From positions 1 to 33,609 of the IMG/VR virus record IMGVR_UViG_3300040801_002597: 33,609 bases of DNA. One strand, given 5' to 3'. How positions within the stretch are numbered: position 1 is the stretch's first letter; each line of letters opens with the position of its first letter. The translations under genes were made by a program, and so were the position numbers. Shown here in pieces: positions 2,356 to 33,609 of the stretch. Origin of the DNA: a virus. The notes beneath the pieces are model-generated. The model had not been told where the DNA came from. It saw only the letters and a program-made list of their open reading frames with translations, and made no database searches.

Positions 2356-3663
2356 ATGAAAAATGTACAACCGCAACCTTTAAACATTTATCAATCTTGT
2401 TTAAGTTTTTTAAGTACTTGTTTAAGTCCATCTTGTTTTAACGATCACAACGTTATTTTAGCCAAACAACAAGTAAAACCTTACATGCTGCCACACAGGG
2501 AAATGCAGATTTATTATAACGAAATTTTGAAAAATAATGTTGTAGGGTATGAAAATATGTGGGACTGGTCAGAAAACAATGATTGCTTGGCATTACACGC
2601 CAGCTTGTCTCAAGTTTATCACAATAAATACGAAATATTAAAAGATGTGGAGGAAATAGTTAAGAATTATTTTACTTATAAATCGGCCTGTGAGCTTCAT
2701 AGCGCGCTTTTAAGATTTAATACATTAAAAGGTGTTGTTGATAGAGAAAAATTGATTGTAGATGCTTTAAATTCAGTTTTAGACTATAAGCAAAACAACT
2801 TTTTGAGAATAACGTCCCAAGAAGAGCGTTATGATAATTATATTTCTAATCTTGAAAATGGTACTGACACCGTTGTTTTAAATGATACAGTTTTCAATTC
2901 TATTGCTGATAATTCTATTAGAAAGCAAGGATTAATAACAGTTGCAGCCAGATCGGGAGGCGGTAAAAGTTATTTTTCAACTTACCTGGCCCTAGAATTT
3001 GCAAAAGTTCTCGATAAAAAAAATATTTTAGTTCTTGATTATGAAATGTATGAAGACGTCCAGACACAAAGAGAATTACAGTTACAAGGCTATACTGACG
3101 ACCTAGAAGGTGCAATAAAAGCACGCAAAGACTTAGAACAAAAACAAGGCCGTATATTGTATATAGAGGGCGCTGCTACAGACAAAAAAATTGATACAGT
3201 TTGTCAAATGGCTAAAATTTACAATTGCCAATACCCTTTAGGCGTCATTGTAGTTGATTACATTGCGTGCTTACATACTGATAACAATTCTCAAAAGTAT
3301 TTATCAATTACTGAGCAAGCCGATAAACTATCAAATCTTGCTCAAGAATTAAATTGTATCATTATTGCGCCGACACAAATTAATCGTGATTATAAAAATC
3401 GCGATAAAAACAATATACAAGAAATGTTACCAAAAACAACAGACGCCTCTTATAGTAGCGGTTTAGAGCAAAAATCTAATTTATGGCTTGGTATTGGAAC
3501 GCCTGAAAACGATCCGACAGCGTTATATGTTGTTTGCCGTAAAAATAGATACGGCGCTAAAGATAACATAGGCATGTATCGTTTTAGAAATGGCCAACTT
3601 AATCCGGCGCCATACCAGCCACAACCAAGCGAATTTAAATCACAATTGGAGAAATTAAAATGA
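2356..3663 (+). CDS. DnaB-family replicative DNA helicase
   Basis: Walker A AARSGGGKS, Walker B VIVVDYIA, APTQINRD, and an arginine-finger-like CRKNRYG. Length is 435 aa and an AGGAG RBS is present. Confidence 0.8.
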   Translation: MKNVQPQPLNIYQSCLSFLSTCLSPSCFNDHNVILAKQQVKPYMLPHREMQIYYNEILKNNVVGYENMWDWSENNDCLALHASLSQVYHNKYEILKDVEEIVKNYFTYKSACELHSALLRFNTLKGVVDREKLIVDALNSVLDYKQNNFLRITSQEERYDNYISNLENGTDTVVLNDTVFNSIADNSIRKQGLITVAARSGGGKSYFSTYLALEFAKVLDKKNILVLDYEMYEDVQTQRELQLQGYTDDLEGAIKARKDLEQKQGRILYIEGAATDKKIDTVCQMAKIYNCQYPLGVIVVDYIACLHTDNNSQKYLSITEQADKLSNLAQELNCIIIAPTQINRDYKNRDKNNIQEMLPKTTDASYSSGLEQKSNLWLGIGTPENDPTALYVVCRKNRYGAKDNIGMYRFRNGQLNPAPYQPQPSEFKSQLEKLK

Positions 3664-23132: not shown

Positions 23133-23777
23133 ATGGCTATAACGGAAATTTCAAGAGATTGGGGCAGAAGTCCTTCAATTGTAAGAATCGAGTCTGATGA
23201 TTCTTTAGCGACCGCGTTAGGTAGTACTTACCTTGCTGACGAGGCCGATAACATTAAATCAGTTAACGATGGTCCTTTTGAGTGGCTCGATGAGGATTTA
23301 TGCTTAATCAAAGGCAGTGATGGTTTTGCGTGGTCTGAGGTAACTGTATCTGGTGATGATGTTACTCAAGCACCTTCTAATATGAATTTAAGTTTAGCGC
23401 ATTATACTAAAGAGGCTGATGATGGTAGTGCTGCCGCTGTTACCGCTGAAACCCCGGTGCTGTCAAGCTCTGGTGGCCTTCAAGTTCAAGCGGTACGCTT
23501 TTTACCGAGTGCGGCCCTTACTGCTAATAACACGAATTACGCAACGCTTACAGTTGTTAACCGTGACGCGGCTGGAAGTTCGGTTGGTACAATTGCAGCA
23601 ATTACCACTGAGATAACCGGCTCTGGCGACTGGGTGGCTTTTGTACTAGAAGATTTTGGCACGCTTGCTAATGCTACAATAGCTGCCGGTGGTACGGTGA
23701 CTTTTGAAATTGAAAAAGCCGCCTCTGGTGTTGTTGTACCAGCGGGTTCGCTTGAAATCGAATATGTCGCGCTTTAA
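23133..23777 (+). CDS. Hypothetical protein (214 aa), Ala/Thr/Gly-rich C-terminal half
   Basis: An AAGGAG RBS follows a 65-nt gap. It is visibly more GC-rich than the early genes. No family recognised. Confidence 0.65.
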   Translation: MAITEISRDWGRSPSIVRIESDDSLATALGSTYLADEADNIKSVNDGPFEWLDEDLCLIKGSDGFAWSEVTVSGDDVTQAPSNMNLSLAHYTKEADDGSAAAVTAETPVLSSSGGLQVQAVRFLPSAALTANNTNYATLTVVNRDAAGSSVGTIAAITTEITGSGDWVAFVLEDFGTLANATIAAGGTVTFEIEKAASGVVVPAGSLEIEYVAL

Positions 23778-24210
23778 ATTTTTTGTTGTAGCTCTCCCTT
23801 GCATGGCGCTTTGTAGTTGCGCCATGTTCTTATGTATTGAGTATGATAAAAAGCCTTGCATTATCCCGCAATCTGATTACCATTTTAAGACCTGTGAACC
23901 GTTTCAGTTTAGAGTTAAGCCTAAAGTTTACTATGTACCTAAAGGATTTGATACAGACTTAGCAAGTATACCGCGCTGGTTTTGGGTCCTATTGCCACCA
24001 CAAAAAACAGAATTTATCGCACCGGCTATCATTCATGATTACTTATATCGCTGTCCTAATGGTCTGACCCGTTATCAGGCTGATAATGTTTTTTATAATG
24101 CTTTGAGAAAAGAGGGCGTTGGCATTTATGAGTCATTAATCATGTACAGTGGCGTTCGAATTGGTGGCTCTCAATTTTTTGACAAGAAAAGGCAAAAAGG
24201 ATGTTATTAG
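23764..24210 (+). CDS. DUF1353-like protein with N-terminal signal/lipoprotein-like segment
   Basis: YVPKGFDTDLASIPRWFW...APAIIHDYLY matches the DUF1353 pattern as I remember it. The N-terminus is MSRFKFFVVALPCMALCSC. ATG 23764 is preferred over 23704. Confidence 0.6.
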   Translation: MSRFKFFVVALPCMALCSCAMFLCIEYDKKPCIIPQSDYHFKTCEPFQFRVKPKVYYVPKGFDTDLASIPRWFWVLLPPQKTEFIAPAIIHDYLYRCPNGLTRYQADNVFYNALRKEGVGIYESLIMYSGVRIGGSQFFDKKRQKGCY

Positions 24211-24626
24211 AGCAACGTATTATTGAAGATGAGGGTTATATCCCTCATGTTTATAGTGATTCTTTGGGTTATGACACAATCGGCGTTGGTTTTTGTGTTG
24301 ATAAAGCGGTTCCCGGTGCTGGCCTTCGTAATGAGGAAATTGAATTTATATTATCGAATCGTATTCAGCTTATAAAAAAAGAGTTATTACAACATAGTTT
24401 TTACAATGATTTAGATTCAGTTCGTCAAGAGGCTATTATTAATATGGCTTATAACCTGGGTGTGCCTAAGCTTTTAAAGTTTAAATACATGATTGCGGCT
24501 ATTAAAAAGCAGGACTGGAAGTCAGTTTATAATGAAGCTTTGGATTCAAGATGGGCGGCTCAGGTTAAACAAAGAGCGATAAGGATAGCGCTATGTCTAA
24601 AGAACGGAGTGTGGCCAGACAATTAG
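24201..24626 (+). CDS. Endolysin, T4-type (GH24) lysozyme
   Basis: EDEGYIPHVYSDSLGYDTIGVG aligns with T4 lysozyme [22 protein letters not shown], covering catalytic E, D and T with identical spacing. Confidence 0.85.
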   Translation: MLLEQRIIEDEGYIPHVYSDSLGYDTIGVGFCVDKAVPGAGLRNEEIEFILSNRIQLIKKELLQHSFYNDLDSVRQEAIINMAYNLGVPKLLKFKYMIAAIKKQDWKSVYNEALDSRWAAQVKQRAIRIALCLKNGVWPDN

Positions 24627-25348: not shown

Positions 25349-26101
25349 ATGTCATCAATTTTTTACAAACATTACACTTGCTTGTATCGCCAATCTGATT
25401 TAGATATTCATGAAATATCAATATTAAATATTGTTATATCTCACACAAATAAAAAAAACATATCTAATCAATCCAATATTGGCCTCTATAATATTCTTAA
25501 AAACATCATGAGTTTTTCTAAAATAAATAAAGCTATGAGCGCTTTACAAAAAAAAGGTTATTTAATCGCATTTGGTAAAACGTATAACAGAAAATTACAG
25601 CTATCTGAAAAGCTACTAAAATTACTTGATCGCACCAAAAATGTCATTGATGAAAAATTGAACGATGTTTCCTGTGAGGAAAGGGATGTTTCCTGTGAGG
25701 AAAGGGATGTGTCACCACAGGACAATATAATAGATAATACTAATAGATCTTTAATAGATAATAACCCTGATGTTGTTGTTTCTGATTCTTTTGTTGAAAA
25801 GAAAGTACTTAGTGCCAGACGTGAGAATCTTGAAAATAACGAGCCCAACGTGCCAAACGATAACTTCTTAGAGGTTATTAAGGCACACATTAAAAGTCGT
25901 CAGGAAAAGGCTGACGTTAGCTTTCATCACGCATTAAACGGCGTTATCAAGATAATTAAGACCACAGGCTTTAAATTGCCAAAAGGTTTTAAAACAAAGC
26001 GCCAGAGAGCTTTAGAGAATGATGAAATTCAGCGACGATTAAAATTACAGGAAGAGTATAGCCGAAACAAAGCACTTAAAGAGTTGGGTCTTCTGGCATG
26101 A
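25349..26101 (+). CDS. Second O-like initiator-architecture protein (wHTH, repeat linker, C-terminal domain)
   Basis: A strong AAGGAG RBS is present. The wHTH-like segment is FSKINKAMSALQKKGYLIAFGKTYNRKLQL. The duplicated DVSCEER linker is encoded by 21-bp repeats. The 3' end overlaps the convergent helicase gene by 26 nt. Confidence 0.55.
   Translation: MSSIFYKHYTCLYRQSDLDIHEISILNIVISHTNKKNISNQSNIGLYNILKNIMSFSKINKAMSALQKKGYLIAFGKTYNRKLQLSEKLLKLLDRTKNVIDEKLNDVSCEERDVSCEERDVSPQDNIIDNTNRSLIDNNPDVVVSDSFVEKKVLSARRENLENNEPNVPNDNFLEVIKAHIKSRQEKADVSFHHALNGVIKIIKTTGFKLPKGFKTKRQRALENDEIQRRLKLQEEYSRNKALKELGLLA
25664..25775 (+). promoter_or_regulatory. Putative second origin-like element (ori2): 21-bp iterons plus AT-rich tract
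   Basis: GATGTTTCCTGTGAGGAAAGG occurs at 25664-25684 and 25685-25705, with a partial third copy at 25706-25721 containing the inverted CACAGG. An AT-rich tract with AATAGATAATA x2 follows. Confidence 0.45.
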
Positions 26102-27755
26102 TATAATCAACAACTTGCAAACCCCATTTGGAGTTTTTACAGACAATTTTTTTAGGTCTGTCTATTCCATGTTGTTTTAAATAAGCAATAACAGCGTTTG
26201 TATTGTGAAGATGCTTGTATAAATATGATGCTTTAGGCACTAACTTTTTAAATAAATTAAAATAAGTGTATTTATAAGATGCGTCTGTGCCGGTAAAATA
26301 ATTTTGGGTAAAAGATATGCCGTCTTCTAGTTGAAATTCAAGCTCATAAATGGGGTAGCCATTATGGTTTTGCGGTGAAATGCGGAAATTAGCTTTGAGA
26401 ACGTTAAAAACTTCATGGTCTTTGGAGCATGATTTTGATAATCCAGTATTGGGATCGATTAACTGATAATCACAGTTTTTACAGTTTTTAGCGGTAATAT
26501 CATTCTCATACCAGCAATCTGGACAATTTTTCCAGTCAAACATATAACTGCAACGCTTATTGTCTGACAAACCAATACAACGGCGAGCGTGCATTGTATT
26601 GTTTGTGTCGCATTCTGGACACGGAATACAAAAATCTGGATCGTTTTTAGCTTTTTCCAAGCGCATTTCATTAACAATTAAATCGTCAATGTCACCATGG
26701 CGCTCTAAGTTACCAGCATAATCTAAAACAAGACAGTTAAGCTTTTCATCATGTAACCTTAAGCCACGACCCAAAGCTTGCAAATATAAAGTAATAGACT
26801 CCGTAGGACGCACAAAAACAACCGTATCAAATAGCGGCACATCGACGCCAGTCGTTAGACAATTTACACTGATTAAATAACAAATTTGGCCTTTTCGAGC
26901 TAATTCTAAAGATTCTTTGCGTTCTTTTGGACATGTCTTACCTGTAATAATGCGTGTTCTTTCTTCTGGTAACTGGCTGGCGCATTCATAACAATGCTTA
27001 ATGCTTGTTGCAAAAATAAAAGCCCCGCGCCTTTGCGAGACTAGACCGTGAACTTCACGCATAATTTCATGAGTAAGCGTTAAATTGTCTTCAACAACAC
27101 GGTTTAAATCTTTTTTATTAAACTGGCCATTGGTTATTTTTACATTTGAAAAATCAATATCAGACTTGTCATGATGACCATAAACCGGCATTACTAAGTA
27201 ATTATTTTTAACAAGCCAGCTTGTCGATATGTTGCAAACTTCACTTTTAAAAAAAGCTTTGTCACCAATTATAGATTCTTTGCCACGAAAAGGGGTGCCC
27301 GTCAGACCAACAACATAACAGCCATAATGATTAAATATGCGCATATACATACTGGTTGGCTTTTTAACGTCAATATTATGACATTCATCTACCACGATTA
27401 AATCAAACTCTTTTCGAGAGATAGTTCTTTCTTTCTGGATAGCTTTAACAATGCTGCCCGGGCTTGCAAATATGACTGGATAGTCATACTCTTTCTTTTT
27501 TAACGTGGCGCAATAGATACCGCAACGACCGCCTTGGCCTTCATAAGTTGCAGCATTTTGCGATATTAAGTCGCTATTCATCGTTAAACATAAAACATTT
27601 TTATTTCTGTTTTGTAAGTATAATAACAGTTCTGCAATAATAAGAGATTTTCCAGCGCCGACGCTGGCATTAACAATACAAGGATCTGTGCTATTTTCAA
27701 CTTGATAAATTAGTTTATCAAGGGCGTCTTTTTGATAAGGTCTAAGTGTCTTCAT
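26076..27755 (-). CDS. SF2 (DEAD/ResIII-type) helicase with C-terminal Cys-rich zinc-ribbon region
   Basis: Motifs LRPYQ, NASVGAGKS, VVDECH, GLTGTP and QALGRGLR. The C-terminus has CIPCPEC...C, CPDC and CKNC clusters. ATG 27755 (MKTLRPYQ) is preferred over 27779. Confidence 0.8.
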   Translation of the reverse strand: MKTLRPYQKDALDKLIYQVENSTDPCIVNASVGAGKSLIIAELLLYLQNRNKNVLCLTMNSDLISQNAATYEGQGGRCGIYCATLKKKEYDYPVIFASPGSIVKAIQKERTISRKEFDLIVVDECHNIDVKKPTSMYMRIFNHYGCYVVGLTGTPFRGKESIIGDKAFFKSEVCNISTSWLVKNNYLVMPVYGHHDKSDIDFSNVKITNGQFNKKDLNRVVEDNLTLTHEIMREVHGLVSQRRGAFIFATSIKHCYECASQLPEERTRIITGKTCPKERKESLELARKGQICYLISVNCLTTGVDVPLFDTVVFVRPTESITLYLQALGRGLRLHDEKLNCLVLDYAGNLERHGDIDDLIVNEMRLEKAKNDPDFCIPCPECDTNNTMHARRCIGLSDNKRCSYMFDWKNCPDCWYENDITAKNCKNCDYQLIDPNTGLSKSCSKDHEVFNVLKANFRISPQNHNGYPIYELEFQLEDGISFTQNYFTGTDASYKYTYFNLFKKLVPKASYLYKHLHNTNAVIAYLKQHGIDRPKKIVCKNSKWGLQVVDYIMPEDPTL

Positions 27756-28389
27756 AATGACAAAACTCATGATAAGCACACATTTTACATTGATACCATG
27801 TTGGTTTATTTGATATTTTTGGCGGCTTTATTTTAGCATTTATAATTTGCTCTGCTTTAAACAAAAGCTGTTCGTAAAGTTCTGGATTAAACGCTATGGC
27901 TTCAACTTGAATTTCTGCAGTATCTTTATCGACAGCAATAAATACACATGATTTTAAACCAGACATACCCATATAGCATTGAACTTGGCAATAATAAGAC
28001 CAACGCCATTTTTTTAAACCTTCGCGACAAAAAGCTAAAAATTCACTGTGTTTGCAGGATTTTATTTCTAAAACGTGTTCTATATCATCGATTACAATAA
28101 TGCCGTCAATATGACCGCCAAAATTTTGAACGGGTGATTTTAATTTAGGGATATCATTAGATAATAATTCAGCTTCACGCAATAAATCTTTTACAAGTGT
28201 TTCTATTCTATGGCCAAGTCTGAATATTATTTTTTGTTTTGCTGTAAAACGTTTTTTTTCTGGATTGTGATAATCATTATATATAGAGCGCGGACAATGA
28301 TTACCAATAGATGACGCACCTAGATAATTTCTAAGTGCGTCTTGTTGGTTGTTTAAGGTTTCATGTATTTTTTTTATTACAAAATCCAT
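27742..28389 (-). CDS. Cas4-like PD-(D/E)xK nuclease with 4-Cys (Fe-S type) signature
   Basis: The nuclease core is GHIDGIIV...HVLEIKSCK. The Cys pattern is C32 ... C-x2-C-x5-C (CKMCAYHEFC), as in Cas4/AddB-type nucleases. Confidence 0.7.
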   Translation of the reverse strand: MDFVIKKIHETLNNQQDALRNYLGASSIGNHCPRSIYNDYHNPEKKRFTAKQKIIFRLGHRIETLVKDLLREAELLSNDIPKLKSPVQNFGGHIDGIIVIDDIEHVLEIKSCKHSEFLAFCREGLKKWRWSYYCQVQCYMGMSGLKSCVFIAVDKDTAEIQVEAIAFNPELYEQLLFKAEQIINAKIKPPKISNKPTWYQCKMCAYHEFCHYEDT

Positions 28390-28402
28390 TTCATTTCCTT
28401 AT

Positions 28403-28945
28403 TTAAAAAGGGATGTCGTCTTGCGGTTGCAATTGGGGATCGGGTTGATAAGCAGGTGGTACACTGTCAAGCGGGTGCGGCTGTTCTTTAAAAACGCCTG
28501 TTTTACATTCAAACCCTTGAGCGGTATGCGTTTCCCGGATAAAGTTACCGCCTTTTTCACCTTGCCACCATTGACCAATAACCAAGCCAACGTATTTTTT
28601 AACTAAGGGTTGTAAATCGTCAGTAGTAGGTGCAAGGCTATGGCTAGGCTTGTAATCACATAACTTAAATATTCTAACAATTTGATTAACGCCTCTATCA
28701 CGTTTACGGGGATCGGCATCAAACGCTTTGATATTTTGTCTGACATTAAAGCCCGTAAACTCACCACCAGTTAGCTCATATTCAATTTGGTAATACTTAG
28801 CGCCATCCTCTTTTTCAATTAGCTCAGCTTTTGTTATTTTAGCAGTGGCCTTTGTACCTTCTGGTATTTTTTCAAAGTTTTTGACGTTACTGTTTTCATC
28901 ACTGCCGTCAATTGTCATGTCACTTTTTGGGGTATAAAAACTCAT
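28403..28945 (-). CDS. SSB-like protein (DUF669-type) ending in an SSB acidic tip
   Basis: It lies downstream of the Sak4-like ATPase, the usual DUF669 context. The C-terminus ...PQLQPQDDIPF mimics the bacterial SSB DDDIPF tip. Confidence 0.65.
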   Translation of the reverse strand: MSFYTPKSDMTIDGSDENSNVKNFEKIPEGTKATAKITKAELIEKEDGAKYYQIEYELTGGEFTGFNVRQNIKAFDADPRKRDRGVNQIVRIFKLCDYKPSHSLAPTTDDLQPLVKKYVGLVIGQWWQGEKGGNFIRETHTAQGFECKTGVFKEQPHPLDSVPPAYQPDPQLQPQDDIPF

Positions 28946-28948
28946 TTG

Positions 28949-29605
28949 TTATTCTCCGTTATAATATTTAATCATTTCTTTTTGTACAAAATTTAAATCG
29001 TTATCAATGTATTCATCGTTAAATAAATCCATTGGGCTTTTAGCGATACTGAAACCGTTGTTTTGTGTTAGAAACTTGTACTCACCATCAATTATTGTGC
29101 TATGTAGCACGCAAGTTACTACACCCTCTAATGTTATTTTTTCAGATAACATTTTACCGATTGTTTTAATGCGTGATATGCCTTGCGCATCGACTTCTGT
29201 ATGTGTCAAAACAAAACAGTATAAATCAGATCGACAACCTAAAAGCGCATTAAATATCGCCCATATGTGACCAGCCATTTCGGTATACTTATTATAGCCT
29301 TTTTCTTGAGCGCGGTTCATGTATTCAATACTCATTATATATTGTAAGTCATCAATAATAATGGTTTTAATATGTGGCATCTTTTCGTTAATCATGTGAA
29401 TACATTTAACAATATGCATCCAGTTAGTAGAACAAAAATAGTTACCTTTGCCGTCTTTTATTGGTATATATTTTTTTTTGTAACCTCTAAATGGCAATGG
29501 CTTATCGAGCACGCTTATAATAAACGTGCTCGCCGGGTCAAAATTGCGGATACTGGTAGATTTACCAGTACCCGACTCGCCCATAACTAGAACTGTATTA
29601 CTCAT
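28949..29605 (-). CDS. Sak4-like (AAA_24) RecA-fold ATPase
   Basis: Walker A GESGTGKS and Walker B TIIIDD, followed by VLTHTE. Size (218 aa) and gene context fit. Confidence 0.7.
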   Translation of the reverse strand: MSNTVLVMGESGTGKSTSIRNFDPASTFIISVLDKPLPFRGYKKKYIPIKDGKGNYFCSTNWMHIVKCIHMINEKMPHIKTIIIDDLQYIMSIEYMNRAQEKGYNKYTEMAGHIWAIFNALLGCRSDLYCFVLTHTEVDAQGISRIKTIGKMLSEKITLEGVVTCVLHSTIIDGEYKFLTQNNGFSIAKSPMDLFNDEYIDNDLNFVQKEMIKYYNGE

Positions 29606-30064: not shown

Positions 30065-30093
30065 TTGATATATCAATTTTTTACATATATAAT
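30065..30093 (+). promoter_or_regulatory. Rightward early promoter with a palindromic operator candidate
   Basis: TTGATA (30065-30070), 17-nt spacer, TATAAT (30088-30093). The perfect 12-bp palindrome TTGATATATCAA (30065-30076) covers the -35. Confidence 0.6.
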
Positions 30094-31815: not shown

Positions 31816-32103
31816 GTGAGATTATATATATCTAAAAGCCGTTCACTGGCTAACTCATTTTGTAGCGCTTATAAAAGTTATCAAACGGTTATTAAAATAG
31901 CTGATGATGGTTGTGTGTTTGAAGCTAAAAGATGGGTTAGGCATGACAATAGCATTGAAGTAGACAGGTGGGTATCTAGTCCTAAAGTTGGCGATCACAA
32001 TTTATTACTGTCTTTTGGTTATACAGAGCTTAAGCCAGTCAATAAATATTTAGAAGACTTAAAAGAGTACGATGCATTAAATAAAAAACAGTGGGGTAAA
32101 TAA
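31816..32103 (+). CDS. Hypothetical protein (95 aa, GTG start)
   Basis: ORF track entry. The GTG lies directly after the upstream stop, with a GGGGGG RBS. Confidence 0.55.
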   Translation: MRLYISKSRSLANSFCSAYKSYQTVIKIADDGCVFEAKRWVRHDNSIEVDRWVSSPKVGDHNLLLSFGYTELKPVNKYLEDLKEYDALNKKQWGK

Positions 32104-32348
32104 TGAACCATTATGAAGTATATAAACAGGTTATGAGTGATACATATAACAAAAATTATACGTATAACTTGCAAAGGTTATTGAGAGACTATAATAACGA
32201 AGACGTTAATTTGGCTATTGAGAGCCTGTCCTTTGCGCTTTCGTTCTTTCAGCAGAAAAAAGAGGAACTGAAAGTACTTGAGGGTAAAGATAGCATGGCC
32301 TCTAAAATGGTCCAGCAGAATATGTTGTTAGAAGATCAGGGGGAGTGA
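32103..32348 (+). CDS. Hypothetical protein (81 aa)
   Basis: ORF track entry with TAATG overlap. Confidence 0.6.
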   Translation: MNHYEVYKQVMSDTYNKNYTYNLQRLLRDYNNEDVNLAIESLSFALSFFQQKKEELKVLEGKDSMASKMVQQNMLLEDQGE

Positions 32349-33257: not shown

Positions 33258-33422
33258 ATGGAACATGTAAGCGTAAGGCTAGAATCTTTGATGGAAGATA
33301 AAACCAAGTGGGACGGGATGCCGATCAAAGGGTTAGCTAACTACTTGGAAACTATAATTGAACAAAACAAGCAAATAATATCTTTATTACAGAGAAAAAA
33401 AGCAGATAAGGACGATAGATGA
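33258..33422 (+). CDS. Hypothetical small protein (54 aa; below ORF-track cutoff)
   Basis: Hand-translated: MEHVSVRLESLMEDKTKWDGMPIKGLANYLETIIEQNKQIISLLQRKKADKDDR. The stop overlaps the next ATG (ATGA). Confidence 0.5.
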   Translation: MEHVSVRLESLMEDKTKWDGMPIKGLANYLETIIEQNKQIISLLQRKKADKDDR

Positions 33423-33609
33423 ATTTTAGTGAAGCATTAGAACAGATTAAAAAAGGTAAATTACTTAAACGCTCTGGCTGGAACGGCAAAGACCAGTTTG
33501 TTTTTTTGGTTAATGGTTCAGAGTTTAAAGTAAACCGTGCGCCTTTGTTGTGGATCTTTGAGGACGGTACAGACATAAAATATCGCCCTCATATTGATAT
33601 GAAGTATCA
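33419..33609 (+). CDS. 5' part of the DUF2829 (Tad2-family) gene, truncated by the window end (full gene 88 aa across the junction, ending at position 193)
   Basis: The sequence begins MNFSEALEQIKKGKLLKRSGWNGKDQFVFLVNG... The N-terminal F.EAL..IK.GK...R.GWNGK and C-terminal W.AS..DLMAEDW signatures match DUF2829 as I remember it. Confidence 0.7.
   Translation, partial: MNFSEALEQIKKGKLLKRSGWNGKDQFVFLVNGSEFKVNRAPLLWIFEDGTDIKYRPHIDMKY
33493..33609. repeat. Terminal overlap, copy B (identical to 1..117)
   Basis: Direct reading; see copy A. Confidence 0.95.

Follow-up and report, generated by a model that had tools for sequence, protein, structure and literature searches.

A Tad2-family gene split by the ends of a phage contig encodes a candidate signal sponge with a variant ligand pocket

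The stretch of DNA analysed here (the window) comprises all 33,609 nucleotides of the IMG/VR virus record IMGVR_UViG_3300040801_002597 and has a G+C content of 37.8%. It harbors phage genes for a P22-like portal, TerS, TerL, a scaffold, and a major head protein, the portal being ~27% identical to those of Vibrio, Shewanella, and Thalassomonas podoviruses. A megablast search of positions 1–25000 against 50,697 phage records returned no match, and, judging from its sequence, the phage is without a close cultured relative. A tRNA search of the window found none. At 23704–24626 (+ strand), the gene of a phage lysozyme (37.2 bits) comes after that of a DUF1353 protein (81.3 bits); a DUF1353-then-endolysin pairing occurs likewise in contig L090.

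Positions 33493–33609 of the window are identical to positions 1–117. An exact match of 117 bases is beyond chance and hence represents a terminal overlap, leaving a unique circle of 33,492 bp. In view of the P22-like portal, TerS/TerL, scaffold, and major head protein, the natural reading of this overlap is that the genome is circular or circularly permuted and the ends of the contig are arbitrary; the portal and TerS/TerL fit headful packaging. Joining 33419–33609 to 118–193 yields an ORF of 267 nt (88 codons and TGA at 191–193), referred to below as tad2. The initial annotation had traced an ORF from the ATG at 33419 through the overlap to the same TGA, and the present reconstruction reproduced it exactly, with an identical 88-aa translation at every residue. 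The expectation that linear annotation would split or miss the gene was borne out as well: its sole trace in the linear ORF list is a TTG-started 59-aa fragment at 14–193, the 5′ part being omitted, and only the joining of the ends makes the gene whole. The features of the region, in the order in which they follow each other on the circle, are as follows.

26076–29605, − strand: leftward early arm with a helicase, a Cas4-domain exonuclease, SSB, and a Sak4-like annealing protein
30061–30034, − strand: promoter-like site in the divergent intergenic region
30065–30093, + strand: candidate rightward early promoter TTGATA-17-TATAAT (11/12), the best score in the region, by consensus match only
33408–33412, + strand: Shine-Dalgarno AAGGA, 6 nt before the tad2 ATG, read directly from the sequence
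33419–33609, + strand: 5′ part of the tad2 CDS (codons 1–63 and 2 nt), by ORF, translation, and PF11195
33493–33609, no strand: terminal overlap of 117 bp (= 1–117), by exact sequence identity
1–193, + strand: 3′ part of the tad2 CDS; 1–117 repeat 33493–33609, 118–193 are unique, TGA at 191–193
373–723, + strand: 116-aa ORF directly after tad2, with an N-terminal signal-peptide-like segment MNKYVLAILALCLIANSSYSA...
726–875, + strand: 49-aa gene of the T7 gp5.9 RecBCD-inhibitor family (PF25708, 51.1 bits against a cutoff of 24.5, E 1.3e-13; assigned by the Pfam profile alone)
1065–1083 and 1183–1213, terminator-like on the − strand: two strong GC-rich hairpins of 8 and 12 pairs, located between the block of small genes and those for replication
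1314–1353: tandem repeat of four perfect copies of AATTTTAACG, with a further AATTTTAAC slightly downstream
1540–2349: replication initiator, downstream of the tad2 run
2356–3663: DnaB-type helicase, downstream of the tad2 run

Since the ORF is present only once the window is circularised, it might be regarded as an artefact created when the contig ends were joined, or as a decaying remnant, instead of a gene. The overlap is exact, however, and unbroken homologues occur on many independent contigs. Thus, in the independent metagenome contigs L001, L006, L087, and L089, the homologous gene runs unbroken and collinear across the window's junction, so the reconstructed tad2 is not a circularising artefact. 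The gene is also preceded by a good ribosome-binding site, and its start is conserved. In comparisons with four homologues, synonymous sites are saturated (pS 0.79–0.88) and pN is low (0.075–0.28), which indicates strong purifying selection on the encoded protein. The exact overlap, the collinear intact homologues, and the purifying selection refute the reading of an artefact or remnant, to which hardly any probability can be assigned.

The gene belongs to a run of small, closely spaced genes on the + strand, which spans the junction (~30093 to 1056). At its start lies a divergent intergenic region with the area's best promoter-like sites; the one at 30065–30093 would be, by its sequence, the early promoter of the tad2 operon. 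The ATG of tad2 overlaps the stop of the upstream ORF (ATGA, 33419–33422), which suggests translational coupling, and the next ORF, with its ATG at 186, shares 8 nt with the 3′ end of tad2. This layout is that of an early operon, i.e., the place where phage sponges are expected. The genes at 26076–29605 (− strand) constitute a full set of recombination genes, arranged divergently to the tad2 operon. On the other side, the two hairpins may terminate leftward transcription or function in both directions; Rfam gave no match in the window, hairpins included. The copies of AATTTTAACG sit in a gene-poor stretch of ~480 bp just upstream of the replication-initiator gene and are probably the iterons of an origin.

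Most of the small neighboring ORFs lack a Pfam or PHROG match. The same is true for the 116-aa ORF at 373–723, whose product, by its N-terminal segment, could be a secreted or envelope protein, e.g., a superinfection-exclusion candidate. The gp5.9-like gene belongs to the same operon and lies 530 bp downstream of tad2; a pairwise PDB search with its 49-aa product returned no match. As assigned by the profile, it would represent a second anti-defence gene beside tad2, bringing at least two of them together, and a tad2 next to a RecBCD inhibitor fits the picture of early-operon anti-defence islands. In contigs L001–L005 (~32-kb phage contigs with a Tad2 85% identical to that described here), a 69-aa gene abutting tad2 (L001:5795–6004) matches the Acb2/Tad1 hairpin PF24729 (37.1 bits, cutoff 27), so that two sponge-type genes adjoin each other. 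A search of the window for such a hairpin gene revealed no significant equivalent; the ORF at 32103–32348 was considered and rejected, as its match has an E of 0.22 and only the N-terminal 'MSDT..KNY' is in common.

Tad2 proteins 85–92% identical to the one encoded here are found on contigs with quite different backbones, e.g., with an Sf6-type terminase and a lambda-P replication module (L001), a T7-type head-tail connector (L087), or a RecT module (L089). In L092, tad2 is placed between tail and lysis genes, and L090 displays yet another gene arrangement. Comparison of the window with L001, L006, and L087–L089 at the DNA level found 75–83% nucleotide identity confined to ~33403–176, that is, to tad2 and its ribosome-binding site; the flanks have essentially nothing in common beyond short, weak protein-level matches. 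Since the backbones are unrelated and the similarity stops at the gene borders, tad2 moves and behaves as a mobile single-gene cassette.

The clade profile retrieved 7,568 representatives at 50% identity (E ≤ 1e-3), and a tad2 homologue is present in 331 of the 50,697 phage records. Among the records of cultured or deposited phages, the best match has an identity of 55.8%. In bacterial genomes, the best match (83%) comes from a 41-kb contig binned in a 'Desulfosporosinus' MAG, which is probably a phage contig; the others are ~60% identical or less and represent many phyla. In one study, 2,783 non-redundant Tad2 homologues were counted in an IMG/VR-based phage-protein dataset. The protein described here thus adds one Tad2 to a very large, known family, the new elements being the pocket variant and the clear cassette behavior.

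The affiliation of the 88-aa protein with Tad2 is firmly supported, as it agrees with the family on each testable feature. It matches Pfam PF11195 (Tad2-like, formerly DUF2829) with 82.7 bits (E 2.8e-23; gathering score 25) over profile positions 1–73 of 73, as well as phrog_872 and phrog_1048 (E ~1e-24). When the PDB was searched by sequence, all matches at E ≤ 1 were Tad2 or AcrIIA7-family proteins: ModTad2 (8V3E/9EIB) scored best (68.9 bits, E 3.7e-18), followed by SptTad2 (55.0), HgmTad2 (52.9), AcrIIA7 (46.8 bits; 9kzr, E 2.8e-11), and SPO1 Tad2 (44.8). The AlphaFold2 monomer model, built on 91 homologues (alignment A1), reached a pLDDT of 94.9 and a pTM of 0.78. With this model, Foldseek found 24 PDB matches at E ≤ 1e-3, all of them (24/24) Tad2 structures, the next match being at E 1.3; the TM values were 0.84 for ModTad2 with His-ADPR (the best, rmsd 2.6), 0.82 for HgmTad2, and 0.69–0.80 for SPO1 Tad2. 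The α1 residues F3, A6, K11, and G13 are invariant in all solved Tad2 members, which agrees with a tetramer but is no test of it. Hence, the assignment to Tad2/DUF2829 made in the initial annotation withstood both the profile search and the comparison with solved structures.

At the same time, members of the Tad2 family differ in their ligands, which include 3′cADPR, His-ADPR, N7-cADPR, cyclic dinucleotides, and cUMP/cCMP (PMC12393519). Sponge activity has been shown experimentally for several of them. SPO1 Tad2 binds gcADPR only, with ribose/phosphate contacts by W25, N26, W73, S76, and D79 (bioRxiv 10.1101/2023.05.01.538930). In HgmTad2, the core contacts are W21, N22, G23, W87, S90, and D93; this protein and SptTad2 bind cyclic dinucleotides too, via a long insertion, and this binding was abolished in HgmTad2 by R31A/N85A together or by S47A alone (bioRxiv 10.1101/2023.11.15.567273). 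ModTad2 does not inhibit type I Thoeris; its canonical pocket accommodates His-ADPR and a second one cUMP/cCMP, while Tad2_71 inhibits Thoeris types I, II, and IV. In a test of 84 sponge homologues from three families, 19 inhibited none of seven systems. The protein from the window is about equidistant from the solved members, with an identity of 34–35% to SPO1 Tad2 and 38–40% to HgmTad2, SptTad2, and ModTad2.

The core of the canonical pocket (W21, N22, G23, W71, S74, and D77) aligns with the same residues in SPO1 Tad2, HgmTad2, SptTad2, and ModTad2; in alignment A1 (91 sequences), W21, N22, W71, and D77 show no variation, and hardly any is seen at G23 and S74. The codons of W21-N22-G23 (33479–33487) and Y63 (33605–33607) belong to the 5′ part of the gene, and the motif W71-L-A-S74-M75-G76-D77 is encoded at 137–157. 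The difference lies at the adenine: all three solved gcADPR binders (3/3) combine S-Q-T-D with a small residue at position 63, vs. S-M-G-D and Tyr63 here. The Thr hydrogen-bonding adenine (T78 in SPO1 Tad2, T92 in HgmTad2) is replaced by Gly76, the preceding Gln by Met75, and the small adenine-contact residue on the other protomer (T65 in SPO1 Tad2, A78 in HgmTad2) by Tyr63. Thus, the adenine-contact signature of the gcADPR subtype, i.e., the Thr of S-Q-T-D with a small residue at 63, is absent from this protein.

Among 223 homologues, Y63 is paired with G76 in 71 of 72 cases and Thr63 pairs with Thr or Ser at 76; the sequences being related, a Fisher test of Y63/G76 overstates their independence, and the coupling is a description, not a statistical proof. 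The Y63/M75/G76 combination defines a subclade of 68 out of the 223 sampled clusters, found almost exclusively on uncultured phage contigs, and sister sequences ~60% identical retain T63 and S-Q-T-D. Among the best 80 loci in bacterial genomes, the Y/S-M-G-D form is encountered in one alone (L006), probably a phage contig. The replacement of small by bulky and the reverse at two residues facing the same adenine subsite suggests, at the level of sequence, a subsite that has been remodelled, not broken.

Besides the canonical pocket, the positions lining the second pocket of HgmTad2 (R31, L36, F70, T71, and N85) are occupied here by V31, F36, Y55, R56, and G69, with P57 next. In ModTad2, these positions hold V, Y, Y, R, and A, then P; hence, the pattern is ModTad2-like, not HgmTad2-like. 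The insertion between β2 and β5 comprises ~25 residues vs. 41 in HgmTad2 (32–72), which counts against cyclic-dinucleotide binding of the HgmTad2 style. In the AlphaFold2 model, β strands 34–37 and 52–55 flank the helix α2; flanking extra β strands are said to open the second pocket in ModTad2. Moreover, the clade (91-sequence alignment) shows little or no variation at N39, R40, Y55, R56, and H58. Sequence and model are therefore compatible with a possible ModTad2-like second pocket, the match to ModTad2 being positional only.

By analogy with the characterised members, the gene probably encodes a functional signal sponge of the Tad2 family, its binding and counter-defence activity being what we infer from this kinship. 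The 88-aa protein would be produced at an early stage of infection, from the rightward early operon, and, as its homologues do, would assemble into a homotetramer in which two V-shaped dimers are paired. Pockets at the protomer interfaces would then bind and sequester a nucleotide-derived immune signal of the host, so that the host effector would never be switched on. The likeliest class of target would be an ADP-ribose-derived signal of a Thoeris TIR protein, held in the inter-dimer pocket formed by W21/N22/G23/W71/S74/D77, and an anti-Thoeris sponge is the likely nature of the protein. The earlier proposal of a signal-sponge anti-defence gene is thus upheld by sequence, profile, and predicted fold. 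Its more specific part, that Tad2 acts by sequestering gcADPR, stands only as far as the family consists of signal sponges: the ligands vary by member, and gcADPR is not established here because the Gln-Thr pair is absent and the best match is ModTad2, which is no type I Thoeris inhibitor. As a rough estimate, 3′cADPR is a serious candidate falling short of an even chance, the same can be said of N7-cADPR, a broad specificity, or another signal taken together, and His-ADPR is a candidate to be held with slightly more reserve.

Sequestration of 1″-3′ gcADPR (3′cADPR), resulting in a block of type I Thoeris like that by SPO1 Tad2, is a plausible reading, although only a tentative one. Besides SPO1 Tad2, four out of five homologues selected for assay proved to inhibit type I Thoeris (bioRxiv 10.1101/2023.05.01.538930), high conservation of the gcADPR site throughout the family has been reported, and 8/12 of the gcADPR-pocket residues of HgmTad2 are identical here vs. 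6/12 in ModTad2; the ~60%-identical sisters with their canonical T63 and S-Q-T-D point in the same direction. Against it stand S-M-G-D and Y63 themselves: the missing Thr is the hydrogen-bond donor to adenine in both solved complexes (SPO1 Tad2 and HgmTad2), and ModTad2, likewise devoid of Q-T, fails to inhibit type I Thoeris. The latter protein offers another possible, if not probable, model, in which His-ADPR of type II Thoeris would occupy the canonical pocket and the second one, at the interface of the dimer, might hold cUMP/cCMP (Pycsar). ModTad2 ranks first both by sequence (68.9 bits vs. 44.8 for SPO1 Tad2) and by fold (TM 0.84); it is of equal length and aligns with almost no gaps, and in both proteins Q-T is replaced by a hydrophobic and a small residue (M-G here, V-S in ModTad2). 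V31, F/Y36, Y55, and R56 with the adjacent P57, which match ModTad2 and not HgmTad2, the modelled strands 34–37 and 52–55 around α2, and the (nearly) invariant N39, R40, Y55, R56, and H58 of the clade speak for this model as well. Yet the identity to ModTad2 (39–40%) is no higher than that to HgmTad2 or SptTad2, the group inhibiting via His-ADPR was described as close homologues of ModTad2, and ModTad2 lacks Y63. Furthermore, the match concerns positions and not the contact residues of His-ADPR or cUMP, and trees of such short sponge proteins are unreliable.

The adenine subsite with Y63/M75/G76 might also have been remodelled for a signal bound by none of the characterised Tad2 proteins, e.g., an undescribed TIR product; alternatively, the protein might hold His-ADPR or N7-cADPR in the canonical pocket and a cyclic mononucleotide in a ModTad2-like second one. 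A reading of this kind seems rather unlikely. A dual sponge resembling HgmTad2 and SptTad2, which would capture cyclic dinucleotides (cGG, 3′3′-cGAMP) as well and block CBASS, is quite improbable: the fold match to HgmTad2 is good (TMq 0.82) and the aromatic Y55 falls at the position of the base-stacking F70, but the HgmTad2 pocket is built from its 41-residue insertion (32–72), vs. ~25 residues here, as in SPO1 Tad2 and ModTad2. Of the residues critical for the binding, R31 and N85 correspond to V31 and G69, and S47 is absent. Still less probable is an anti-CRISPR of the AcrIIA7 type capturing type II-A tracrRNA. The DUF2829 body is common to both proteins (9kzr, E 2.8e-11), but AcrIIA7 is 158 aa long and carries an N-terminal head domain (PMC13133391). 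The alignment starts at residue 50 of AcrIIA7 and the 88-aa protein begins at the DUF2829 helix, so the lack of the head domain makes this role unlikely. In addition, the nearest cultured-phage matches of the portal (~27% identity) are phages of Gammaproteobacteria. Type II-A CRISPR systems are uncommon in Gammaproteobacteria.

Returning to the anti-Thoeris sponge as the likely nature of the protein, the coupled Tyr63/Gly76 variant is its only point of wider interest, being either a silent substitution or a new specificity. If the subsite is indeed remodelled for another signal, the protein could be used as a bait to capture and identify this signal, as ModTad2 was for His-ADPR. From the practical viewpoint, gene calling on circular phage assemblies should be preceded by rotation or wrapping, as small anti-defence genes situated at the junction are lost otherwise.

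Among the known systems, Tad1, Acb2, Acb4, and Sequestin have the strategy in common with Tad2: all are short, homo-oligomeric early proteins sequestering immune nucleotide signals, but their folds are unrelated to that of Tad2. No homologues of these four were detectable in the window. With HgmTad2 (a homologue of AcrIIA7; PDB 8KBI–8KBM, 8WJC) and SptTad2 (8WJD), the protein described here shares the fold (TMq 0.79–0.82) and, in the case of HgmTad2, the eight identical gcADPR-pocket residues include M61, W71, L72, S74, and D77. Unlike both, it is devoid of the 41-residue insertion forming the cyclic-dinucleotide pocket and of R31, S47, F70, and N85; unlike HgmTad2, it has G76 in place of T92 and Y63 in place of A78.

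SPO1 Tad2 (gp34.65; PDB 8SME, 8SMF, 8SMG) is similar in family, size, and the predicted tetramer-forming fold, and its W25/N26/W73/S76/D79 are kept. The two proteins differ in overall sequence (34–35% identity) and superposition (TMq 0.69–0.80, rmsd 3.4–6 Å), as well as in the replacements of T65 by Y63, T78 by G76, and H71 by G69. The insertion of SPO1 Tad2 is also different: it is a single helix, and the stacking of F44 closes the second pocket.

The best match by both sequence and fold remains ModTad2 (MoTad2) from a Myroides odoratus prophage (PDB 8V3E, apo; 9EIB, with His-ADPR). Its ligands His-ADPR and cUMP/cCMP have been shown experimentally, whereas those of the protein from the window are predictions. 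The identity is 39–40%, and the signature of the ModTad2/CcaTad2/TmoTad2 clade, S-V/T/I-S-D, is alike in character but not identical to S-M-G-D, which corresponds to S-V-S-D in ModTad2 itself; Tyr63 stands against Thr, and positions 72–73 are L-A against T-P. On the other hand, both proteins are 88 aa long and align nearly without gaps, and they have in common the W-N-G/W-S-D core, the lack of the Q-T pair, V31, Y55-R56-P57, and the short insertion flanked by β strands.
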